From: Escherichia coli
GTDB taxonomy: Bacteria; Pseudomonadota; Gammaproteobacteria; Enterobacterales; Enterobacteriaceae
Assembly (NCBI RefSeq): GCF_003334815.1
Contig: NZ_QOWO01000009.1
Strand: one strand, 5' to 3'
Length of the DNA: 64,000 bases
Of the stretch, positions 4,686 through 61,312 are shown piece after piece. A model generated the notes under the pieces. It searched no databases. It saw only the letters and a program-made list of their open reading frames with translations, and was not told where the DNA came from. A program made the translations under genes and the position numbers. How positions within the stretch are numbered: the stretch's first letter is position 1; each line of letters starts with the position of its first letter.

Positions 4686-4845
4686 GGGTTATTCCTTATC
4701 TATCTAATAACGTTGAGTTTTCTGGAACCTGTCCCATTGAACTCTCGCCGGAAAGCTCAATAAGACAGGTTCTACGTTTAGTTGCCGCGCTTTTATATGC
4801 GCTTGATTTACAACATCTTCTGGATAATTTTTACCAGAAAAATCA

Positions 4846-5610
4846 CTAATTCTTTCGTTGCTCCAGACGACGCAGAGAACGCTCACGGCGGCTCTCTTCA
4901 CGACTTCTGTCGAGCAAAATTTCTTCGATAAAGGCCAGATGGCGATGCGATGCTTCGCGCGCTTCTTCCGGCTTACCGGCCATAATCGCTTCAAATATGC
5001 GGGTGCGGTGACTACTCACCAGCGGCAGCATCTCGCGACGCGAATAGAGCAATTCGAAGTTCTGGCGGACATTCTGGGCCAACATCGGCTCCATACACCT
5101 TAGCAGATGAAGCAGAACTACATTGTGGGCCGCTTCGGTGACGGCAATCTGATACTGGAGTACGGCGTTTGATTCCGCGTCCAGATCGCCAGACTGCTGC
5201 GCCAGCTCTATGGCGTGGTGGAGTTCACGGATGCGTTCCTTGTCTTCATCGGTACTACGCAGCGCGGCGTAATAAGCGGCGATACCTTCCAGGGCGTGTC
5301 GTGTTTCGAGCAAGTCATACTGTGACTCAGGATGGTCGGAGAGCAGCTCCACCAGCGGATCGCTGAAGCTTTGCCATAGGCTGCTCTGGACAAAAGTGCC
5401 GCCACCCTGGCGACGAAGCAACAAGCCCTTCGCTTCGAGACGTTGAATCGCCTCACGCAAGGAGGGACGGGAGACGTCAAACTGTTTTGCCAGTTCGCGT
5501 TCCGGTGGGAGTTTTTCGCCCGGGCGGAGAGTGCCTTCGAGGATCAAAAACTCCAGTTGCTGCTCAATCACATCGGAGAGTTTTGGTTGGCGGATTTTGC
5601 TGTAGGCCAT
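4846..5610 (-). CDS. pdhR: Pyruvate dehydrogenase complex repressor, GntR family (254 aa)
   Basis: ORF track frame; canonical start [18 protein letters not shown] is 11 codons inside the longest ORF; HTH GntR-type N-terminus. Confidence 0.93.
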
Positions 5611-5641
5611 GAGTTCCTGTCTTAAGCCACTTGCCGAAGTC

Positions 5642-5658
5642 AATTGGTCTTACCAATT
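5642..5658. promoter_or_regulatory. PdhR operator palindrome aattggtcttaccaatt in the pdhR promoter/leader
   Basis: Perfect inverted repeat ATTGGT-N3-ACCAAT about 30 bp upstream of the pdhR start codon; matches the known PdhR box. Confidence 0.7.
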
Positions 5659-6039
5659 TCATGTCTGTGACGCTAAAGTAACAAAGTATTCACCTTATGT
5701 CCATACAGGTTTTGATTGAAATCATGAAACTGTGCACATTTTAACAACTTGACATATATAACGTTTCAAAGTTGTAACTATGCACAAATGTAGACTTTAC
5801 GTAGGAAAGGAGTTTTTTAACGATTATTAAACTATAAAAATCCGAATTGAACCGATTCACTTACCAATTTTGTGATTTTTAATTCAATTAAAACGAATTT
5901 AAATTCATTCTACATATTGAGAGGGGTTGAGGCTGAGCTTTACAAACGGTTTCTTTTTAAGCAACTCATCTTCAACCATGCATAAAGCGGGTGCATTCGC
6001 TGCCGCATACCATTATTCTTGATCTGACGGAAGTCTTTT

Positions 6040-6080
6040 TGTAACAATTCAAACTTCTTTGATGTAAACAAATTAATACA
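6040..6080. promoter_or_regulatory. Candidate TyrR box(es) upstream of aroP
   Basis: tgtaaacaaattaataca at 6063-6080 approximates TGTAAA-N6-TTTACA; adjacent weaker tgtaacaattcaaac; about 70-110 bp upstream of aroP. Confidence 0.4.
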
Positions 6081-6150
6081 ACAAACGGAATTGCAAACTT
6101 ACACACGCATCACTGCGTAGATCAAAAAAACAACCACCGCACGAGGTTTC

Positions 6151-7524
6151 ATGATGGAAGGTCAACAGCACGGCGAGCAGCTAAAGCGCGGCCTTAAAAA
6201 CCGCCATATTCAGCTTATCGCGCTGGGTGGCGCGATAGGGACCGGGTTATTCCTGGGTAGCGCCTCCGTAATACAGTCCGCAGGGCCAGGGATTATCCTG
6301 GGTTACGCCATTGCTGGTTTTATCGCCTTTCTGATCATGCGTCAGCTGGGTGAAATGGTGGTCGAAGAACCTGTCGCAGGCTCCTTTAGCCACTTTGCTT
6401 ATAAATACTGGGGCAGTTTTGCCGGTTTCGCCTCTGGCTGGAACTACTGGGTACTGTACGTTTTAGTTGCCATGGCTGAGCTGACTGCCGTGGGTAAATA
6501 CATTCAGTTCTGGTATCCGGAAATCCCCACCTGGGTTTCTGCCGCCGTATTCTTTGTGGTGATTAACGCCATCAACCTGACCAACGTTAAAGTGTTTGGC
6601 GAGATGGAGTTCTGGTTTGCCATTATCAAAGTTATCGCGGTGGTAGCGATGATCATCTTCGGCGGCTGGCTGCTATTCAGTGGCAACGGCGGCCCGCAGG
6701 CGACCGTTAGCAACCTGTGGGATCAGGGTGGTTTCCTGCCGCACGGCTTCACCGGGCTGGTGATGATGATGGCGATTATCATGTTCTCGTTCGGTGGTCT
6801 GGAACTGGTGGGGATCACCGCAGCAGAAGCTGATAACCCGGAGCAAAGTATACCGAAAGCAACTAACCAGGTTATCTACCGCATCCTGATTTTCTATATT
6901 GGTTCGTTAGCCGTTCTGCTCTCACTGATGCCGTGGACCCGCGTTACCGCCGATACCAGTCCGTTTGTGCTGATCTTCCACGAGTTAGGCGATACCTTTG
7001 TGGCGAATGCGCTGAACATCGTGGTACTGACTGCGGCGCTCTCCGTGTACAACAGCTGCGTATATTGCAACAGCCGTATGCTGTTTGGTCTGGCACAACA
7101 GGGTAATGCGCCAAAAGCGCTGGCGTCTGTCGATAAACGTGGTGTACCAGTAAATACCATTCTGGTGTCTGCACTGGTAACGGCGTTGTGCGTACTGATT
7201 AACTACCTTGCCCCAGAGTCCGCTTTCGGACTGTTAATGGCGCTGGTGGTATCTGCACTGGTAATCAACTGGGCGATGATTAGCCTGGCGCATATGAAAT
7301 TCCGTCGCGCCAAGCAGGAACAAGGCGTGGTAACTCGCTTCCCTGCTCTGCTTTATCCGCTGGGTAACTGGATCTGCCTGCTGTTTATGGCGGCGGTACT
7401 GGTGATTATGCTGATGACCCCAGGAATGGCGATTTCGGTATACCTGATCCCGGTATGGCTGATCGTGTTAGGTATCGGCTATCTGTTTAAAGAGAAAACC
7501 GCCAAAGCCGTAAAAGCGCATTAA
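6151..7524 (+). CDS. aroP: Aromatic amino acid:H+ symporter, APC family (457 aa)
   Basis: ORF track 457 aa, multi-helix membrane protein with APC-type signature; position between pdhR and ampE. Confidence 0.95.
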   Translation: MMEGQQHGEQLKRGLKNRHIQLIALGGAIGTGLFLGSASVIQSAGPGIILGYAIAGFIAFLIMRQLGEMVVEEPVAGSFSHFAYKYWGSFAGFASGWNYWVLYVLVAMAELTAVGKYIQFWYPEIPTWVSAAVFFVVINAINLTNVKVFGEMEFWFAIIKVIAVVAMIIFGGWLLFSGNGGPQATVSNLWDQGGFLPHGFTGLVMMMAIIMFSFGGLELVGITAAEADNPEQSIPKATNQVIYRILIFYIGSLAVLLSLMPWTRVTADTSPFVLIFHELGDTFVANALNIVVLTAALSVYNSCVYCNSRMLFGLAQQGNAPKALASVDKRGVPVNTILVSALVTALCVLINYLAPESAFGLLMALVVSALVINWAMISLAHMKFRRAKQEQGVVTRFPALLYPLGNWICLLFMAAVLVIMLMTPGMAISVYLIPVWLIVLGIGYLFKEKTAKAVKAH

Positions 7525-16060: not shown

Positions 16061-16268
<208 letters not shown>

Positions 16269-16272
<4 letters not shown>

Positions 16273-16669: not shown

Positions 16670-16698
16670 TATAAAAAAGGCGCAGAATCCTGCGCCTT
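16670..16698 (-). terminator. Hairpin aaggcgcaggattctgcgcctt plus U-run on minus strand, between secA and mutT
   Basis: Perfect stem with T-run on the minus-strand side immediately 3' of secA stop. Confidence 0.5.
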
Positions 16699-16717
16699 TT
16701 ACTTCAACAGTTAGCTT

Positions 16718-19423
16718 TTATTGCAGGCGGCCATGGCACTGCTTGTATTTTTTACCAGAACCGCACGGGCAAGGATCGTTACGTCCTACTTTGCGCTCTC
16801 CGGTTTGCGCCGCCAGTGCAGCTGCGGCTGCAGAGTCGTCATCCTGATGGCTAAGCTGCTGCATTTGCGCTAAACGCTCGGCTTCCATACGACGCTGTTG
16901 TTCCAGCTCCTCAACCTCTTCAGGCATACGTACCTGAACTTTGCTCAGCGTACTGATAACTTCATATTTCAACGACTCCAGCATCGCTGCAAACATGGAG
17001 AACGATTCACGTTTGTATTCCTGCTTCGGATCTTTCTGTGCGTAGCCACGCAGGTGGATACCCTGACGCAGATAGTCCATCGCTGCCAGGTGCTCTTTCC
17101 ACAGGGAGTCAAGCGTTTGCAGCATGACGCCTTTCTCGAAGTGACGCATCATCTCAGCACCAACCACTTCTTCTTTACGCTGATACACTTCGATGGACTG
17201 CGCCAGAATGCGCTCACGCAGCGTCTCTTCATGCAGTTCTGGTTCTTTATCCAGCCACTCGGCAATTGGCAAATCGAGGTCGAAATCGTTCTTCAGACGT
17301 TCCTGCAGCCCCGGAATATCCCACATTTCTTCCAGCGACTGTGGTGGAATGTAGGCATCAATGGTCGCTTTGAACACATCTTCACGAATGCTGTTAATGG
17401 TTTCGCTCACATCGCTGACATCCAACAGTTCGTTACGCTGGGAGTAAATGGCGCGACGCTGATCGTTAGCCACGTCATCATATTCCAGCAGTTGCTTACG
17501 AATGTCGAAGTTACGGCTTTCAACTTTACGCTGGGCGTTGGCAATCGCTTTAGTCACCCACGGGTGTTCAATGGCTTCGCCTGGCTTCATACCCAGTTTA
17601 CGCATCATGCCGGATACTCGGTCGGAAGCAAAAATACGCATCAGCGCATCTTCCATCGACAGGTAGAAACGGGAAGAACCAGCATCCCCCTGACGACCAG
17701 AACGACCGCGCAACTGGTTATCGATACGACGGGATTCGTGACGCTCGGTACCGATGATATGCAGGCCACCTGCTTCCAGTACCGCATCGTGACGTACCTG
17801 CCAGTCGGCTTTAATTTTTTCAATTTGCTCTGCGGTCGGATTTTCCAGCGCGGCAACTTCTGCCTGCCAGCTACCACCGAGCACAATATCTGTACCACGA
17901 CCCGCCATATTGGTCGCGATAGTCACCGCAGCCGGATAACCTGCCTGAGCAACAATCGCCGCTTCGTTGGCGTGGAATTTGGCGTTCAGGACGTTGTGCT
18001 TAATACCGGCTTTGGTCAGTTCGTTTGACACCAGCTCCGATTTTTCGATGGAGATAGTACCCACCAGCACCGGCTGGCCTTTCGCAGTACGTTCTTTGAT
18101 ATCTTCAATGATCGCCTGAATTTTTTCCGCTTCAGTCATGTAGACCAGGTCCGGCAGATCTTTACGAATCATTGGACGGTTGGTCGGAACAACGACGGTA
18201 TCCAGCTTGTAGATTGAGCTAAATTCGAAAGCTTCGGTATCAGCAGTACCGGTCATCCCCGCCAGTTTTTCATACAGACGGAAGTAGTTCTGGAAGGTGA
18301 TCGAAGCCAGCGTTTGGTTTTCGTTCTGGATCTGCACACCTTCTTTCGCTTCCACAGCCTGGTGCAGACCATCGGACCAGCGACGGCCCTGCATGGTACG
18401 ACCGGTGTGTTCGTCAACGATGATAACTTCACCATCTTTAACGATGTAGTCGACGTCACGGGTAAACAGCGCATGAGCGCGCAGCGCCGCCGTTACGTGG
18501 TGCATCAGCATGATGTTGGCCGGAGAGTACAGAGACTCCCCTTCATCCATGATGCCCTCTTTCACCAGCAGTTCTTCAATCAGCACCAGACCACGTTCGG
18601 TCAGGTTCACCTGGCGAGATTTTTCGTCCACCGAGAAGTGGCCTTCGCCCTGGAAGGTTTCGGAGTCTTCTTTTTCCTGACGGATCAGGTGCGGAATAAT
18701 TTTATTCACGCGTTTATACATTTCCGAGCTGTCTTCTGCCGGGCCGGAAATGATCAGCGGTGTACGCGCTTCATCGATCAGGATGGAGTCCACTTCGTCC
18801 ACCAGCGCATAGTGCAGTTTACGCTGTACACGTTCTTCAGGGCTGAACGCCATGTTGTCGCGCAGGTAGTCAAAGCCGTATTCGTTGTTCGTACCGTAAG
18901 TGATGTCAGCTGCGTAAGCTTCGCGCTTTGCCGGTGCTGGCATGCCCGGCAGGTTGATACCGACAGTCAGGCCAAGGAATTCAAACAGCGGACGGTTGTT
19001 TTCGGCGTCACGTTGCGCCAGGTAGTCGTTGACGGTAACTACGTGCACGCCTTTACCGGTTAGTGCGTTCAGGTAAGCAGGCAGCGTTGCGGTCAGGGTT
19101 TTTCCTTCACCGGTACGCATTTCGGCGATGCAGCGTTCGTTAAGAACCATACCGCCGAGTAACTGAACGTCGAAGTGACGCATACCAAAGACGCGCTTAC
19201 TTGCCTCACGTACCACGGCGAAAGCTTCCGGGATCAGATTTTCCAGCACTTCGCCTTTTTCCAGACGTGCACGAAACTCTGCGGTTTTCCCTTTCAGTTC
19301 TTCGTCGGAGAGTTTTTCCATCTCCGGTTCCATGGCATTGATGATGTTGACCACTTTGCGCATCCGGCGCAGGGTGCGATCGTTACGACTACCGAAAACT
19401 TTAGTTAACAATTTGATTAGCAT
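16718..19423 (-). CDS. secA: Preprotein translocase ATPase SecA (901 aa)
   Basis: ORF track 901 aa [26 protein letters not shown]-terminal zinc-binding [14 protein letters not shown]. Confidence 0.98.
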
Positions 19424-21245: not shown

Positions 21246-22397
21246 TTAATCAGCTTGCTTACGCAGGAATGCTGGGATATCCAGATAATCCGGCTCTTTC
21301 GCAGTTTGCGGCGCATTGTCATTCACGACTTTAGCAACCGGCTTCTGCTCCTGGGTCAGCGGAGCCATCCCATGCTGCTGGTAGCGATCCATCACTGGCT
21401 GCTGAACCTGCTTATTGGTCACCAGAGTGATTTCAGGACGTTTGTCCATGCCGATACCTGTCGCAACAACGGTTACGCGCAGCTCGTCATTCATATCCGG
21501 GTCAAGAGAAGTACCGATAACCACAGTCGCGTTGTCGGAAGCAAATGCACGGATGGTGTTACCTACCGTTTCGAACTCATCCAGACGCAGGTCGAAGCCC
21601 GCCGTGATGTTAACCAGCACGCCGCGCGCGCCAGACAGGTCGATATCTTCCAGCAGCGGAGAAGAGATAGCCATTTCAGCAGCTTCTTCCGCACGGTCTT
21701 CACCGCTCGCCACGCCAGAACCCATCATTGCGTAGCCCATCTCAGACATTACGGTGCGTACGTCTGCAAAGTCCACGTTCATCAAACCCGGACGAGTAAT
21801 CAGTTCAGCGATACCTTGCACAGCGCCTTTCAGTACATCGTTCGCTGCGCCAAACGCATCCAGCAGGGAGATACCGCGGCCCAGAACTTTCAGCAGTTTG
21901 TCGTTCGGGATAGTGATCAGAGAGTCCACATGCTTGGACAGTTCAGTGATCCCCTGCTCCGCGAATGCCATACGCTTCTTGCCTTCAAAGTTGAAAGGCT
22001 TAGTGACGACAGCAACGGTCAGGATACCCAAATCTTTTGCCACTTCAGCGACGACTGGTGCTGCACCTGTACCGGTACCACCACCCATACCCGCAGCAAT
22101 AAAGACCATGTCTGCACCTTCCAGCGCCGCACGCAATGCATCGCGATCCTCATCAGCCGCATTGCGGCCAACTTCTGGATTAGCGCCAGCGCCCAGTCCT
22201 TTGGTGATACCGCTACCGATTTGAATCGTCTGTCCAACCGCTGTTTTACGCAGCGCTTGTGCATCGGTATTTACCGCGAAGAATTCAACACCTTCAATGC
22301 GCTCGCGCACCATGTGTTCAACAGCATTACCGCCGCCGCCGCCGACGCCGATGACTTTAATCACCGCGTCATTGGTAAGTTCCATTGGTTCAAACAT
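21246..22397 (-). CDS. ftsZ: Cell division GTPase FtsZ (383 aa)
   Basis: Tubulin signature GGGTGTG, N-terminus [26 protein letters not shown]. Confidence 0.98.
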
Positions 22398-22457
22398 AGT
22401 TTCTCTCCGATTTGTGCCTGTCGCCTGAGGCCGTAATCATCGTCGGCCTCATAAAAA

Positions 22458-23720
22458 TTAAAACTCTTTTCGCAGCCAACTATTGAGTCGCTTGATCCAC
22501 GAGCCAACTGATGCTGTAACACGTTTTTCTACTTCAGCTTCACCGTTAAGATGTGACTCTTTCCCATAGTGAAGCAATCCCACCGCCGTCGAATAATACG
22601 GCTCCTGAGCATAATCCGTTAAACCGGTAATGTTCAGCGGCGCGCCGATACGCACTTGCGTATGAAACACGCGCTGAGCACAGGCTGCAAGACCTTCGAT
22701 CTGCGCTGCGCCACCGGTTAATACAATGCCTGCCGCCAGGTGATGTTTAACCCCTTGTTGGCGAAGCTTTTCCTGCAACTGCAATATCTCTTCGTTGACC
22801 AGGTTGAGCAGCTCGGTATAGCGCGGCTCGATCACCTCTGCCAGTGTCTGACGTTGCAGACTCCGTGGCGGACGACCACCTACGCTCGGCACTTCCACGC
22901 TCTCATCTTTTCCAACGATGGAACCCAGCGCACAACCGTGGCGAACTTTAATCGCTTCGGCGTCGCTTGGCGGCGTGCCAAAGGCGTAAGCGATATCACT
23001 GGTCACGACATTGCCAGCATAAGGAATTACCTTAGTGTGGCGCAATGCCCCACCGGTATAAACGGCGATATCCATTGTACCACCACCGATATCGACGACG
23101 CAGACACCCAGTTCACGTTCATCTTCCGTCAATACCGAATAACTTGATGCCAGTCCGGCAAATATCAGTTGGTCAACTTTCAGCCCACAACGTTCAACCG
23201 CTTTGACGATGTTTTTCGCCATATCGTTGTGACATGTGATCAGGTGCACTTTTGCCTGCATCCGCACGCCCGAAAGTCCTACCGGATTCTTGATCCCTTC
23301 CTGATAGTCAATCGCATACTCTTGCGGGATCACATGCAGCACACGATGCTCATCGCGCACACGCACCGATTTCGCGGTATGGACGACGTTTTCCACATCT
23401 TCTTGCGTCACTTCTTCTTCAGAAATAGGCACCATACCAATTTCATTCTGGCAGCTGATGTGCTTACCAGAAAGCGCCAGATATACCGAAGAGATCTGAC
23501 AATCTGCCATCAATTCTGCCTGGTCAATGGCGCGTTGTACGCACTTGACCACGGATTCGAGGTCGTTCACCCCGCCTTTATCCATACCACGCGACGGGCA
23601 GCTGCCCACGCCAATGATATTGACCATACCGTCGGGCAGAACTTCCCCTACTAAAGCGGCAACCTTCGCGGTACCAATCTCCAGTCCTACTACCAGTTTT
23701 CTGTCCGTCGCCTTGATCAT
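22458..23720 (-). CDS. ftsA: Cell division protein FtsA, actin-like ATPase (420 aa)
   Basis: ORF track 420 aa; overlaps ftsQ stop by 4 bp. Confidence 0.97.
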
Positions 23721-42072: not shown

Positions 42073-42389
42073 GGCCTGCCTCACTGTTTGACGGAAAAAA
42101 TGTGTAAAACACATTAACCGTCCGATCTTGCTTAAGCAATTGGCAGCCAGAGACATAAACACGGGGTAATAAGAATAAACAGGAGGAAAGGTGAAAAGAA
42201 ACGATAAAATCCTCCATTACAGAGGATTAAATTGATAATAAATCGGCTGAATCCCACAACTTACAGCAATTTCTCTATTTTTTTAATTAATCCTAAAATA
42301 GAGAGCCCACACATTCAGAATAAAATTCTACATTCAATAAAAAATGCAGAATAAACCAGACATTCATGTCTGACCTATTCTGCAATCAG

Positions 42390-43334
42390 TTAGCGTTTGC
42401 AAATTGAGACTAATTGCTCTTCCATCCACTGATGGCCTTTATCGCGCCCGGCAGCTTCATGCCAGGAGAGATAACAGGTTCTGCTGTTTTGTTTTAACGG
42501 CAGCGGTAATACCTGTAATTCTAAGGATTCAGCGAACTCTTCAGCCAGCCAACGCGGCGCAATAGCGACCAAATGCGTTTGCGACACCACGCTAAGTACG
42601 CTCATCATTGCCATGCCCTGATACGCGATACTGGCTTGCTTATCTACCGTGTCATACCAAGGTTGACTAAATGACGCGAAACGATCGAGCGAAACCGCCG
42701 CATGTTGTTCGTTATAAACATCATGTTTCAGTAACGGGCCCTTAATTGTTGGATGATTTTTGCTGGCTACCAGCACCATTTCATCTTTAAATAATGGTAC
42801 GCTGGTAAATTCAGGACGATGGAAGTCTTCATAACTAATCACAAACTCCGTTTCCTGATAACGCAGCTGATGTTCAGTGTTCTGATTTAATGAAGACTTG
42901 AACATAACATGTATATTTGGCGCAATCTGCTCAATGTGATTATAAATCTGCGAGGTCAGAATGCTGTCTAACGGGCTGCAAACACAAAGATGAAATACAC
43001 GTTCACTGCTCGCGGGTTCAAAACCTGAACCAGGCAATTCATTTTGTACTAGTTGCAATGCCTGACGAACTGAACCAAAAAGTTGAAATGCGCGAGCAGT
43101 CGGTTGAATACCACGGCCATAACGAACAAAAAGCTCGTCATTAAACATCACCTTCAGGCGTGCAACAGCGTTACTGACCGCAGGTTGCGACATTCCCAGA
43201 ACATGAGCGGCACGAGTAATGTTTTGCTCCTGCATCACGGCATCGAAAACGGTTAATAAGTTGAGATCGACCATGCGTAGCTGTGGTTTGCTTAACTCCG
43301 CCGTCTCTGGATGATCTGTTTGTACCTCTGGCAT
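42390..43334 (-). CDS. leuO: LysR-type transcriptional regulator LeuO (314 aa)
   Basis: Canonical start [33 protein letters not shown]; LysR HTH. Confidence 0.93.
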
Positions 43335-43993
43335 ACTTAACTCCACTGTCACACTTAACTCCCTTTCCCTTATTGGAATGCAGAGAAATAATCCTGAAGA
43401 ATATGATTTATCATGCATATAAAATAAGAAAAAGCAAAATGAGTAAAATTCGGAAAACATAAAGATACGGGTTCTGATAAAAACAGAATCCATTGCCGTG
43501 GAATGAGTCATTTACCACAGCATAATAATCCATAATGTTTTTGTTGCGAAAACAATCTAATCATAACTACCGCGAATACTCAATCATCTACAAAATGGAT
43601 TAAATGTGCTTATTTAATAATTAATTTATATATTTAATGCATTAATTCTTAACATTAATTGATCAATAATATTCACCAAATCAATATCAAAAAAAATCGC
43701 AAAACATATAATTCAATACAAATCATCAGGATAGGTTTTGCAACGCGTGCATTTTGTCCCCTTTTTCCTCGTTGATTAGATGCAAAAATTTATGCTGAAA
43801 TATGTCAACCGATGAAAAGCGTCGGTAGTTAAGCAGAAATTAATATCGCTTACTTTAACCACCGCAGCACAATTAGCTAATTTTACGGATGCAGAACTCA
43901 CGCTGGCGGGACGTTTTTATTGCGTCAGGGTTGACATCCGTTTTTGTATCCAGTAACTCTAAAAGCATATCGCATTCATCTGGAGCTGATTTA

Positions 43994-44080
43994 ATGACTC
44001 ACATCGTTCGCTTTATCGGTCTACTACTACTAAACGCATCTTCTTTGCGCGGTAGACGAGTGAGCGGCATCCAGCATTAA
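43994..44080 (+). CDS. leuL: leu operon leader peptide with four consecutive Leu codons (28 aa)
   Basis: [28 protein letters not shown]-stop read from sequence. Confidence 0.93.
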
Positions 44081-44095
44081 GCCAGCACGCAGTCA

Positions 44096-44128
44096 AACAA
44101 AAAACCCGCGCCATTGCGCGGGTTTTTT
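44096..44128 (+). terminator. leu attenuator terminator hairpin aaaacccgcgccattgcgcgggttttttt
   Basis: Perfect GC stem + T7 run between leuL and leuA. Confidence 0.9.
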
Positions 44129-44172
44129 TATGCCCGAAGCGAGGCGCTCTAAAAGAGACAAGGACCCAAACC

Positions 44173-46835
<2,663 letters not shown>

Positions 46836-52058: not shown

Positions 52059-52094
52059 TTGCTGGTTGATAACAAAATCACTACACTAACGCCG

Positions 52095-52200
52095 TTCTCA
52101 ACGGGGTGCCACGCGTACGCGTGCGCTGAGAAAATACCCGTCGAACCTGATCCGGATAACGCCGGCGAAGGGATTTGAGGCTCCTTCTCAAGTCCTTTGC
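52095..52200 (+). ncRNA. TPP (thi-box) riboswitch in thiBPQ leader
   Basis: Conserved elements ggggtgcc ... ctgagaaaatacccg ... gaacctgatccggataacgccggcgaaggga read directly upstream of thiB. Confidence 0.85.
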
Positions 52201-60870: not shown

Positions 60871-61312
60871 GCCGCATCCGGTATGTAACGCCTGATGCGA
60901 CGCTGACGCGTCTTATCTGGCCTACACGCTGCGATTTTGTAGGCCGGATAAGCAAAGCGCATCCGGCATTCAACGCCTGATGCGACGCTGGCGCGTCTTA
61001 TCAGGCCTACGCGCTGCGATTTTGTAGGCCGGATAAGCAAAGCGCATCCGGCATTCAACGCCTGATGCGACGCTGGCGCGTCTTATCAGGCCTACGCGCT
61101 GCGATTTTGTAGGCCGGATAAGCAAAGCGCATCCGGCATTCAACGCCTGATGCGACGCTGGCGCGTCTTATCAGGCCTACGCGCTGCGATTTTGTAGGCC
61201 GGATAAGCAAAGCGCATCCGGCATTCAACGCCTGATGCGACGCTGGCGCGTCTTATCAGGCCTACACGCTGCGATTTTGTAGGCCGGATAAGCAAAGCGC
61301 ATCCGGCACGAA
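60871..61312. repeat. Tandem REP/BIME array: about 5 copies of an 85-bp unit, each unit containing two inverted REP palindromes
   Basis: cctgatgcga recurs at 60891, 60976, 61061, 61146, 61231 (exact 85-bp period); the three middle units appear identical. Confidence 0.9.

Follow-up and report, generated by a model that had tools for sequence, protein, structure and literature searches.

What kind of control is encoded in the long AT-rich DNA between the divergent genes leuO and leuL of Escherichia coli, and in the short leader that follows it? The question arises from a window, i.e., the whole analysed stretch of 64,000 nucleotides, in which positions 43200-44300 show 100% identity to E. coli K-12 MG1655. 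The RefSeq annotation of the identical K-12 DNA gives the same calls for leuO, leuL, and leuA. The gene order is ilvI (minus strand), leuO (minus strand), leuL (plus strand), and leuA (plus strand), and the AT-rich DNA lies between the divergent promoters. The main parts of the locus are as follows:

42390-43334, minus strand: leuO coding sequence, LysR-type regulator of 314 amino acids (open reading frame and translation, NCBIfam LeuO equivalog, RefSeq K-12)
43335-43993, no strand: divergent control region leuO-leuL, AT-rich, 659 bp (GC content, nothing annotated, conserved length and GC)
43994-44080, plus strand: leuL leader peptide coding sequence, 28 amino acids (translation, NCBIfam leader-peptide equivalog)
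44173-45744, plus strand: leuA, the first structural gene under attenuator control (open reading frame, RefSeq K-12, NCBIfam)

The start codon of leuO is the complement of 43332-43334, and its product matches the NCBIfam LeuO equivalog with 572.8 bits against a cutoff of 262, besides many weaker LysR-family matches. LeuO is a member of this family, encoded divergently from leuL in 79 of 80 enterobacterial loci. The leuL frame runs from the ATG at 43994 to the stop codon at 44078-44080 and matches the leu leader-peptide equivalog (80.9 bits, cutoff 59), while the leuA product is recognized as 2-isopropylmalate synthase (1047 bits, cutoff 748). The leuO-leu control region is a long-studied, already known E. 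coli K-12 locus that fits published mechanisms. It comprises, with high confidence, two adjoining control devices that are already known: the leu attenuator and an AT-rich regulatory spacer serving leuO and leu. Ribosome stalling, termination efficiencies, and the binding of H-NS, LeuO, BglJ-RcsB, and Lrp are deduced or taken from the literature in what follows.

The GC content of the spacer is 32.9%, compared with 52.8% for the whole window, of which it is the lowest-GC 659-bp stretch. Windows of 659 bp with equally low GC account for 0.06% of the total, and every one of them overlaps the spacer. A preliminary description of this DNA had named a 659-bp AT-rich spacer between divergent leuO and leuL, and both its coordinates and its size are right. 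The divergent layout extends over many genera. In the 79 species genomes that share it, the spacer measures 549-753 bp (median 633 bp, 5th-95th percentile 602-658 bp) and its GC content is 31-44% (median 34%); the Salmonella subspecies in the set have spacers of 645-655 bp with 33-34% GC. Two regions can be distinguished within the leuO-proximal and central parts of the spacer:

43522-43721, no strand: AT-rich core, a candidate H-NS nucleation or silencer zone (21.5% GC, the lowest 200-bp GC in the spacer)
43395-43464, minus strand: leuO-proximal conserved blocks, probably part of the leuO promoter or regulatory region (80-genome identity)

A 200-bp core of 19-32.5% GC is found in each of the 80 enterobacterial species examined, in most of them near the middle of the spacer, and its sequence has a median identity to E. 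coli of only 0.46. One natural isolate carries an IS1 insertion within the core, at 43640-43648. The conserved length of about 630 bp together with the central AT-rich core may reflect a geometric need of H-NS bridging or of supercoil coupling. In the leuO-proximal blocks, the identity of 20-bp windows over the 80 genomes reaches 0.74-0.87 at 43395-43434 and 0.82 at 43445-43464. From these blocks and the literature, we infer the placement of the leuO promoters. A scan of the spacer with TCGATAAATT, the form of the H-NS high-affinity motif assumed here, yielded two weak matches with two mismatches.

Upstream of leuO, published work places the promoters P1 and P2, LeuO sites, and a BglJ-RcsB site, and it describes repression by H-NS and StpA as well as LeuO autoregulation (PMC5025477, PMC3950696). 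H-NS acts at leuO, and upstream divergent transcription activates more than 10-fold in Salmonella (PMC10981669). The promoter relay has been reviewed (PMC4264507, PMC4770239), with most of the experiments performed in Salmonella leu-500 or topA backgrounds. The silencing by H-NS and StpA, the autoregulation by LeuO, and the supercoiling relay at the spacer rest on these experiments, which have been published for the locus of E. coli as well as that of Salmonella. In the proposed mechanism, the 659-bp spacer would act as a shared regulatory region for the divergent leuO and leu promoters. H-NS and StpA would silence leuO, and LeuO, through autoregulation stimulated by 2-isopropylmalate, and BglJ-RcsB would counteract this silencing. 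Negative supercoils produced by neighbouring transcription would couple ilvIH, leuO, and leuABCD, forming the promoter relay.

The other side of the spacer carries the leu promoter and one element upstream of it:

43931-43959, plus strand: leu promoter, with the -35 element TTGACA at 43931-43936, a 17-bp spacer, and the -10 element TAACTC at 43954-43959 (sequence reading)
43865-43879, no strand: operator-like block CAGCACAATT(A/C)GCTA, almost invariant, 15 bp (80-genome conservation)

The TTGACA hexamer and the downstream segment TATCCAGTA..CTAAAAGCATAT are conserved in the 80 genomes. We infer the -10 element and a start site at about 43967 from the spacing and from the K-12 annotation. The consensus promoter scan did not list the leu promoter, because its -10 element has no T at position 6; the scan returned a sole promoter-like site in the spacer, fewer than shuffled sequences give.

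The block is the sole near-invariant one upstream of the promoter. In the 80 genomes, 12 of its 15 positions are at least 95% identical (43866-43873, 43876-43878, and 43880, shifted by the alignment line), and two more are at least 80% identical. Relative to the presumed leu start site, it lies at about -102 to -88. Measured against the Lrp consensus in the form assumed here, the block has two mismatches, and a scan with the same assumed consensus gave four E. coli sites with at most two mismatches, against 0.39 expected. A broad coating of the spacer by Lrp is unsupported, because only the block at 43865-43888 recurs across species. The literature search found no factor assigned to the block 43865-43879, which may already stand in curated regulatory databases, and the search on the palindrome AATTAGCTAATT returned irrelevant matches only. 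The block is proposed with low confidence as a candidate transcription-factor operator, for which the factor could be Lrp, or LeuO with 2-isopropylmalate.

The same block bears on the first alternative explanation, according to which the spacer would be mainly a classical LysR divergent promoter, where LeuO with 2-isopropylmalate activates leu directly and both the relay and H-NS spreading are secondary. The LysR operator has the form T-N11-A and precedes the start site of its target by roughly 50-80 bp, and a divergent promoter of this type would not obviously require about 630 bp. The conserved block contains an AGC-N7-GCT dyad (pattern AGCACAATT.GCT) and does not carry the T-N11-A signature of the family. 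Further evidence against this explanation comes from the observations that mutation of leuO does not cause leucine auxotrophy (PMC4264507) and that leuO is silent under laboratory conditions (PMC5025477). In its favour, LeuO binds leuLABCD promoter DNA in vitro, with 2-isopropylmalate enhancing the binding and raising the thermal stability as well (PMC12494820), and the divergent arrangement is typical of LysR-type regulators (PMC4264507). The near-invariant block with its dyad, about 95 bp ahead of the leu start site, points in the same direction, as do several 7-N5-7 near-palindromes in the AT-rich core, which match in shape the core site described for LeuO (PMC6698644). Taken as the main function of the spacer, such a promoter is possible but doubtful. 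It would complement, and not exclude, the reading of the spacer as a silenced and supercoil-coupled regulatory region.

Second, the length of the spacer could be explained by an unannotated gene for a small protein or by a small RNA. The preliminary description had stated that the spacer contains no open reading frames. This stands for frames of at least 60 amino acids lying wholly inside the spacer and fails for shorter ones, since mechanical open reading frames of 22-41 amino acids lie wholly inside it. A frame of 59 amino acids (43283-43462) runs into the spacer from leuO, and upstream of their start codons the frames of leuO and leuL stay open for 59 and 35 codons, respectively. In addition, one sigma-70-like match at 43550-43522 points to leuO. 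However, at most 10 of the 76 non-Escherichia loci keep any given spacer frame at full length and free of stops, compared with 69 of 76 for leuL, and the DNA under the longer frames is the least conserved and contains many gaps. The annotation of K-12 and of 40 sampled E. coli genomes contains nothing in the spacer apart from IS1 insertions. The Rfam scan at E <= 1 gave no family for the spacer, apart from sub-threshold matches on the terminator and two microRNA-family matches, which are taken as chance. An undisclosed frame with homologs, the finding that would have spoken against the earlier account, did not emerge, as the spacer frames are not kept across genera. A hidden gene or small RNA is therefore rejected as very unlikely.

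Third, the spacer could be a horizontally acquired remnant on which H-NS acts purely as a xenogeneic silencer and which has no locus-specific regulatory role. Its GC content, 20 points under that of the window and still lower in the core, would suit foreign DNA, and so would the weak sequence conservation of the core between genera. The spacer also varies more than its flanks within E. coli: 1151 genomes fall at 90-95% identity when the spacer is compared by itself, and 6 when the flanks are included. On the other hand, several blocks of the spacer are conserved at an identity of at least 0.8 in the 80 genomes, and the region has neither a retained open reading frame nor a mobile-element signature or flanking repeats. 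The layout, the length, and the low GC are shared by 79 enterobacterial species, so that, as had been claimed from the sequence at the outset, the spacer is no foreign island, and an acquired remnant is rejected as highly improbable.

Downstream of the spacer, the second device is formed by the leader RNA and its alternative structures:

43967-44129, plus strand: leu leader RNA of about 163 nt, with the attenuator at its end (Rfam, minimum free energy fold)
44021-44032, plus strand: four tandem CUA leucine control codons, CTA in the DNA (translation)
44019-44057, plus strand: protector hairpin core, pairing 44019-44025 with 44051-44057 and 44035-44038 with 44046-44049 (minimum free energy structure)
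44047-44111, plus strand: antiterminator (preemptor), pairing GCGCGG 44047-44052 with CCGCGC 44106-44111 and enclosing an inner stem (constrained folds)
44099-44129, plus strand: intrinsic terminator (attenuator), with a 13-bp perfect stem, CAUU loop, and U7 (sequence, repeats, folding)

The leader matches the Rfam family RF00512 (Leu_leader) at 43980-44129 with 145.8 bits (gathering score 50), over model positions 1-148 of 148. Its minimum free energy is -55.7 kcal/mol (z = -4.9 against shuffled sequences), and the corresponding structure consists of the protector and the terminator. The four consecutive leucines reported earlier for leuL are present in its 28-residue product and are all encoded by CUA, which makes up 3.5% of the leucine codons in the long open reading frames of the window. 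Given four leucines in a row, the probability that all of them are CUA is about 1.4e-6, and the run is more than chance. Among 79 species, four CUA codons occur in 74, three in 3, and three with an additional CUC in 2.

Leucine-dependent termination and readthrough at this leader have been described (PMC9291695 and the 1991 work cited therein; PMC9299463), and the attenuation of leuL, its pause, and its protector hairpin have been published (PMC9291695). A plasmid PleuL-gfp fusion that includes the attenuator gave no response to added amino acids (PMC6345581). In the proposed mechanism, the leu promoter would produce the leader of about 163 nt encoding LeuL with four rare CUA codons, which would allow ribosome-mediated attenuation. 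When Leu-tRNA is plentiful, the ribosome would pass the CUA run and the protector would hold the GCGCGG sequence (strand GCGCGGUAGAC). With the protector formed, the 13-bp terminator and its U7 tract would form and stop transcription before leuA. Under a shortage of Leu-tRNA, the ribosome would stall at the CUA run and the protector would melt. The freed GCGCGG at 44047-44052 would then pair with CCGCGC at 44106-44111 before the 3' arm of the terminator is made, resulting in readthrough into leuABCD.

The structures themselves are consistent with such a switch. Around a 4-nt loop, the two arms of the terminator (44099-44111 and 44116-44128) show 100% complementarity, and seven T residues accompany them at 44123-44129, which bears out the perfect hairpin with a T7 tract that had been noted after leuL. 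The hairpin by itself has a folding energy of -19.7 kcal/mol, is located 44 nt upstream of the leuA ATG, and has a core that is invariant in the 80 genomes. The simple terminator scan did not pick it up, probably because the A-U pairs of the stem absorb most of the T run that is sought after a stem. The protector sequesters five of the six nucleotides of GCGCGG, as leucine codons 1-2 and the AAC-GCA sequence pair with the GCGCGGUAGAC strand. Across 75 distinct leaders, pairing is kept at 98% in the first of its two helices and at 97% in the second, and a single base pair covaries, changing from UA to CG in 13 sequences.

The CCGCGC sequence lies within the 5' arm of the terminator; the antiterminator and the terminator are mutually exclusive. 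The competing antiterminator pairing, for which RNA folding had been suggested as a check, is present. The folds of the ribosome-controlled switch used a leader truncated before the 3' arm and assumed footprint sizes. With the footprint masked and the 3' arm absent, the antiterminator reaches -19.9 kcal/mol, compared with the -19.7 kcal/mol of the terminator. Folded in silico with a ribosome masking the leucine codons, all 80 enterobacterial leaders form the antiterminator and have their terminator arm captured, whereas without the ribosome the arm is free in 68 of the 80. Pairing amounts to 82% and 77% for the two given leader structures and falls to 37-47% and 21-46% once the partners are slid. 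All three switch strands are invariant across the enterobacterial leaders, and the six closing pairs of the antiterminator are 100% paired and unchanged in the 75 distinct sequences. Covariation in this closing helix was therefore impossible to see among these sequences, and the conservation of synonymous sites was used instead: codons 19-20 (CGC, GGT) are invariant at their fourfold-degenerate sites. Covariation over the whole structure was not clearly above that of shuffled sequences, and in the comparison across genera, pairing in the outer helices of the E. coli minimum free energy structure is no more than 67-73%. Equilibrium folds of the full-length leader contain the terminator in every case, even with the ribosome mask. 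The switch therefore depends on kinetics, which was modelled only by truncation and assumed footprints.

The idea that the hairpin and T7 tract are a constitutive terminator or insulator of a short leuL transcript, and not a regulated attenuator, is scarcely credible: the equilibrium fold and the symmetry of the element (A6-stem-T7), which could also stop minus-strand transcription, would agree with it, but no separate strong promoter-like site for leuA is present at 44130-44172, synonymous sites in the antiterminator strand do not vary, all 80 leaders reproduce the ribosome-dependent switch, and attenuation control of leu has been published (PMC9291695, work cited therein, PMC9299463).

Both devices can be compared with known systems. 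The leader is the identical element described by RF00512 and the NCBIfam leu leader peptide, with the four CUA codons, the protector, the antiterminator, and the terminator all present, and E. coli differs from other genera only at non-critical leader positions. The trpL, hisL, thrL, pheL, ilvL, and ivbL attenuators share its logic of tandem control codons, mutually exclusive hairpins, an intrinsic terminator, and a pause hairpin (PMC9291695). They differ in their control codons, and the leu leader uses a rare codon. In sequence, these attenuators are not significantly related to the leu leader: the models of the Thr, Phe, and Trp leaders reach 20-28 bits on it, below their gathering scores and mainly through the terminator. 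The ilvIH-leuO-leuABCD relay of Salmonella Typhimurium, also described in E. coli, has the same genes, gene order, divergent promoters, and AT-rich intergenic DNA; however, its 72-bp silencer and LeuO sites were mapped in Salmonella, whose sequence can be aligned with the E. coli core only in part. The bgl, yjjQ-bglJ, and cas promoters likewise combine AT-rich DNA and H-NS silencing with counter-silencing by LeuO or BglJ-RcsB (PMC5025477, PMC3950696, PMC6698644). Unlike in those systems, the silenced gene here is the counter-silencer itself, and the AT-rich DNA belongs to the ancestral core genome and not to an acquired locus.

Both the leu attenuator and the ilvIH-leuO-leuABCD relay have long served as teaching examples. 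The sequence of the window is that of K-12, and it holds little that is new. The comparative data add modest detail on the switch, the codons, the spacer, and one conserved upstream block. Even synonymous sites do not vary in the strands of the switch, nearly all of the Enterobacteriaceae sampled retain the rare CUA codons, and the spacer keeps its length and its AT-rich core while its sequence drifts. If the upstream block is indeed an operator, it would give the leu promoter a direct input from the leucine pathway beside attenuation and supercoiling, and the textbook picture would stay unchanged.

The DNA between leuO and leuA is the leuO-leuL control region of Escherichia coli K-12. The interval 43200-44300 of the window matches E. 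coli K-12 MG1655 at 100% identity and is present in 5400 of 5426 complete E. coli genomes. On identical DNA, RefSeq annotates leuO, leuL (leu operon leader peptide) and leuA and leaves the spacer without annotation; among 40 E. coli genomes sampled down the ranking, the sole annotated feature under the spacer is one IS1. The products match NCBIfam equivalogs (LeuO 572.8, curated cutoff 262; leader peptide 80.9, cutoff 59; LeuA 1047, cutoff 748), and Rfam Leu_leader (RF00512) is matched end to end at 43980-44129 (145.8 bits, gathering score 50). The region is among the best-described regulatory regions in bacteria and is therefore already known. It contains the following elements:

42390-43334, minus strand: leuO coding sequence, 314 aa, ATG as complement of 43332-43334 (sequence read over 42200-44500 and ORF listing)
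43335-43993: leuO-leuL spacer, 659 bp, between the two ATGs
43335-43364: conserved block at the leuO 5' end
43395-43434 and 43445-43464: conserved blocks, probably leuO promoter elements
43522-43721: AT-rich core, 21.5% GC
43865-43879, extending to 43888: conserved block CAGCACAATT(A/C)GCTA
43931-43936 (TTGACA) and 43954-43959 (TAACTC), 17-bp spacer: leu promoter, well conserved
from 43994, plus strand: leuL coding sequence, 28 codons, ATG ACT CAC ATC GTT CGC TTT ATC GGT CTA CTA CTA CTA AAC ... TAA
44099-44111 and 44116-44128: arms of the terminator hairpin AAAAAACCCGCGC-CATT-GCGCGGGTTTTTT
44123-44129: T7 tract closing the hairpin

The preliminary description is confirmed in its observations: the length and coordinates of the AT-rich spacer between divergent leuO and leuL are exact, the four consecutive Leu codons are read as CTA x4, and the hairpin after leuL is perfect (arms 100% complementary) and closed by seven T. 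The GC content of the spacer is 32.9% versus 52.8% for the window, and it is the lowest-GC 659-bp stretch in the 64 kb, with 0.06% of 659-bp windows equally low, all of them overlapping it. The next lowest are 5543-6201 (37.5% GC) and 42187-42845 (41.3%). The latter spans the AT-rich ilvI-leuO intergenic region, in which an Lrp consensus is matched with one mismatch at 42316-42330 and RefSeq annotates YabR (14 aa, 42191-42235, plus strand), oriented opposite to the genes on either side.

Folding of the free leader (43967-44130) yields a long protector stem and the terminator, at -55.7 kcal/mol (z = -4.9). The antiterminator is called the preemptor in older leu papers; "protector" is used as in PMC9291695. 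The protector core consists of two helices: G44019-U44025, which runs from the second base of the Gly codon through Leu codon 1 to the second base of Leu codon 2, pairs with G44051-C44057, and C44035-A44038 pairs with U44046-G44049. The two helices together sequester all but one of the six bases of GCGCGG (44047-44052). At equilibrium, the complete leader keeps the terminator every time, even with a ribosome mask. A kinetic switch would be expected to show such persistence, which is thus no test of it; folds were therefore made with a ribosome masked over any one of the four Leu codons, the RNA ending before the terminator 3' arm. In these folds GCGCGG pairs with CCGCGC (44106-44111), part of the terminator 5' arm, closing a structure of -19.9 kcal/mol, comparable to the terminator hairpin (-19.7). 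Without a ribosome, or with one at the stop codon, the 5' arm is free in the truncated folds. The competing pairing by which the proposed attenuator was to be judged is thus found in silico, placed as the classical protector, preemptor and terminator model requires. The terminator (44099-44129) is also symmetric (A6-stem-T7), and therefore intrinsic-terminator-like to minus-strand transcription from leuA towards the spacer.

The leader was compared across 80 loci, obtained by a LeuO scan with one genome per species and drawn from Escherichia, Salmonella, Citrobacter, Enterobacter, Klebsiella, Kluyvera, Kosakonia, Leclercia, Raoultella, Atlantibacter and others. It lies upstream of and divergent from leuO in 79; the remaining contig is too short. 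GCGCGG, CCCGCGC, GCGCGGG and the T7 tract do not vary in the 80-sequence alignment. The protector and terminator structure is 82% paired, versus 37-47% with the partners slid, and in the two core helices of the protector pairing reaches 98% and 97%, and one pair covaries. The corresponding values for the antiterminator are 77% versus 21-46%; its closing helix is 100% paired and never varies in sequence, and therefore covariation is uninformative either way. Kinetic folds with a ribosome at the final Leu codon capture CCCGCGC by 5-7 of its 7 bases in 80/80 leaders, and with no ribosome the motif is wholly unpaired in 68/80. In leuL, hardly any position of codons 10-15 and 19-20 varies, and this extends to the fourfold-degenerate third positions in CGC and GGT; third-position identity is 0.89 for codons 10-21 (flanking codons 0.63-0.68). 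Such a pattern points to the RNA, not the peptide, as what is constrained. Among 79 species, 74 have CUA x4 as control codons, three have CUA x3 and two have CUA x3 plus CUC. Since CUA makes up only 3.5% of leucine codons in the long ORFs of the window, CUA x4 given LLLL has p ~1.4e-6.

Upstream of the leader, CAGCACAATT(A/C)GCTA barely varies among 80 enterobacterial genomes. It lies ~95 bp upstream of the leu start site, which the K-12 annotation and the promoter spacing would put at ~43967. The block carries an AGC-N7-GCT dyad and has two mismatches to an Lrp consensus. At up to two mismatches, this consensus has four sites in the E. coli spacer versus 0.39 +/- 0.60 in shuffles, and of 84 such sites in the 80 spacers, 60 fall in the interval that contains 43865-43888, 100-150 bp ahead of the leuL ATG. 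The block is a candidate operator for Lrp or LeuO; the searchable literature yielded no assigned factor, and curated databases may already record it. A high-affinity H-NS motif has two weak matches only. Five 7-N5-7 near-palindromes with 6/7 complementarity, the shape reported for the LeuO core site (PMC6698644), lie at 43620-43659, 43536-43554, 43669-43687 and 43808-43826; two of them, ATTAATT-N5-(A/C)ATT(T)AAT, lie in the AT core.

Elsewhere in the window, in which no tRNA genes were found, the following RNA elements are matched:

4688-4801, plus strand: tp2, 103.4 bits, expected K-12 RNA
16076-16269, minus strand: naRNA4 (REP-type) tandem array, two copies
16673-16742, minus strand: STnc40, 84 bits, expected K-12 RNA
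22389-22478, minus strand: Rfam PssrA ("plasmid-encoded Shigella sRNA A"), 105.5 bits
50109-50335, minus strand: SgrS, 228.8 bits, expected K-12 RNA
52092-52191, plus strand: TPP riboswitch, 65.9 bits, expected K-12 RNA
60942-61262, plus strand: naRNA4 (REP-type) tandem array, four evenly spaced copies, 85-bp period

The PssrA match is odd for a family named plasmid-encoded, as it lies at what is presumably the chromosomal ftsA-ftsZ junction of the K-12 map.

A foreign origin of the spacer is ruled out, as the preliminary description had held, by its similar length, low GC and AT core across 79 species. The claim that the spacer has no ORFs stands for ORFs of at least 60 aa wholly within it, and fails for mechanical ORFs of 22-41 aa and for a 59-aa ORF (43283-43462) entering from leuO; the frames are open upstream of the ATG for 59 codons at leuO and 35 at leuL. 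No conserved hidden ORF or known RNA family was found in the spacer either. By tblastn, no spacer ORF is kept stop-free at >=80% length in more than 10 of 76 non-Escherichia loci, versus 69/76 for leuL, and conservation is lowest, and gaps most frequent, beneath the longer ORFs. A permissive Rfam scan of 43250-44200 returned only the leu leader, plus terminator-driven sub-threshold matches. Of the two conditions that the preliminary description set for its refutation, neither holds.

Within E. coli the spacer is more divergent than its flanks, with 1151 genomes at 90-95% identity for the spacer alone (43335-43993) and only six with flanks included (43200-44300). IS1 lies inside it in two natural isolates (human faeces, duck), NZ_AP045775.1 and NZ_CP076646.1; in the former it sits in the AT-rich core at 43640-43648, flanked by a 9-bp target duplication. 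Activation of leuO by insertions upstream of the gene is known.

How the spacer may act, by H-NS silencing and a promoter relay, is taken from the literature, which supports the earlier interpretation. In E. coli and Salmonella, leuO is silenced by H-NS and StpA and autoregulated by LeuO; of its two promoters, distal P1 and proximal P2, the second is activated by BglJ-RcsB from a site 57 bp upstream of the P2 start (PMC5025477, PMC3950696). H-NS is bound at leuO in Salmonella, and inducing a divergent unit 427 bp upstream of the leuO start site raises leuO transcription >10-fold, supporting supercoiling-driven counter-silencing (PMC10981669). In the relay, ilvIH, leuO and leuABCD are activated sequentially, with Lrp acting at ilvIH (PMC4264507, PMC4770239). 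A 2025 study describes leuLABCD promoter DNA as bound by LeuO, more strongly with the LeuA product 2-isopropylmalate (PMC12494820). Adding amino acids had no effect on a plasmid PleuL-gfp fusion that carried the attenuator, and its authors explain this by missing genomic context (PMC6345581).

Across the 79 species, the distance between the two ATGs is 549-753 bp (median 633, 5th-95th percentile 602-658), spacer GC is 31-44% (median 34%) within loci of ~51%, and a 200-bp core with 19-32.5% GC is present in each species, mid-spacer in most; the median identity of the E. coli core to other genera is only 46%. Conservation is thus stronger for composition and geometry than for sequence, as would fit recognition of DNA shape by a protein such as H-NS.
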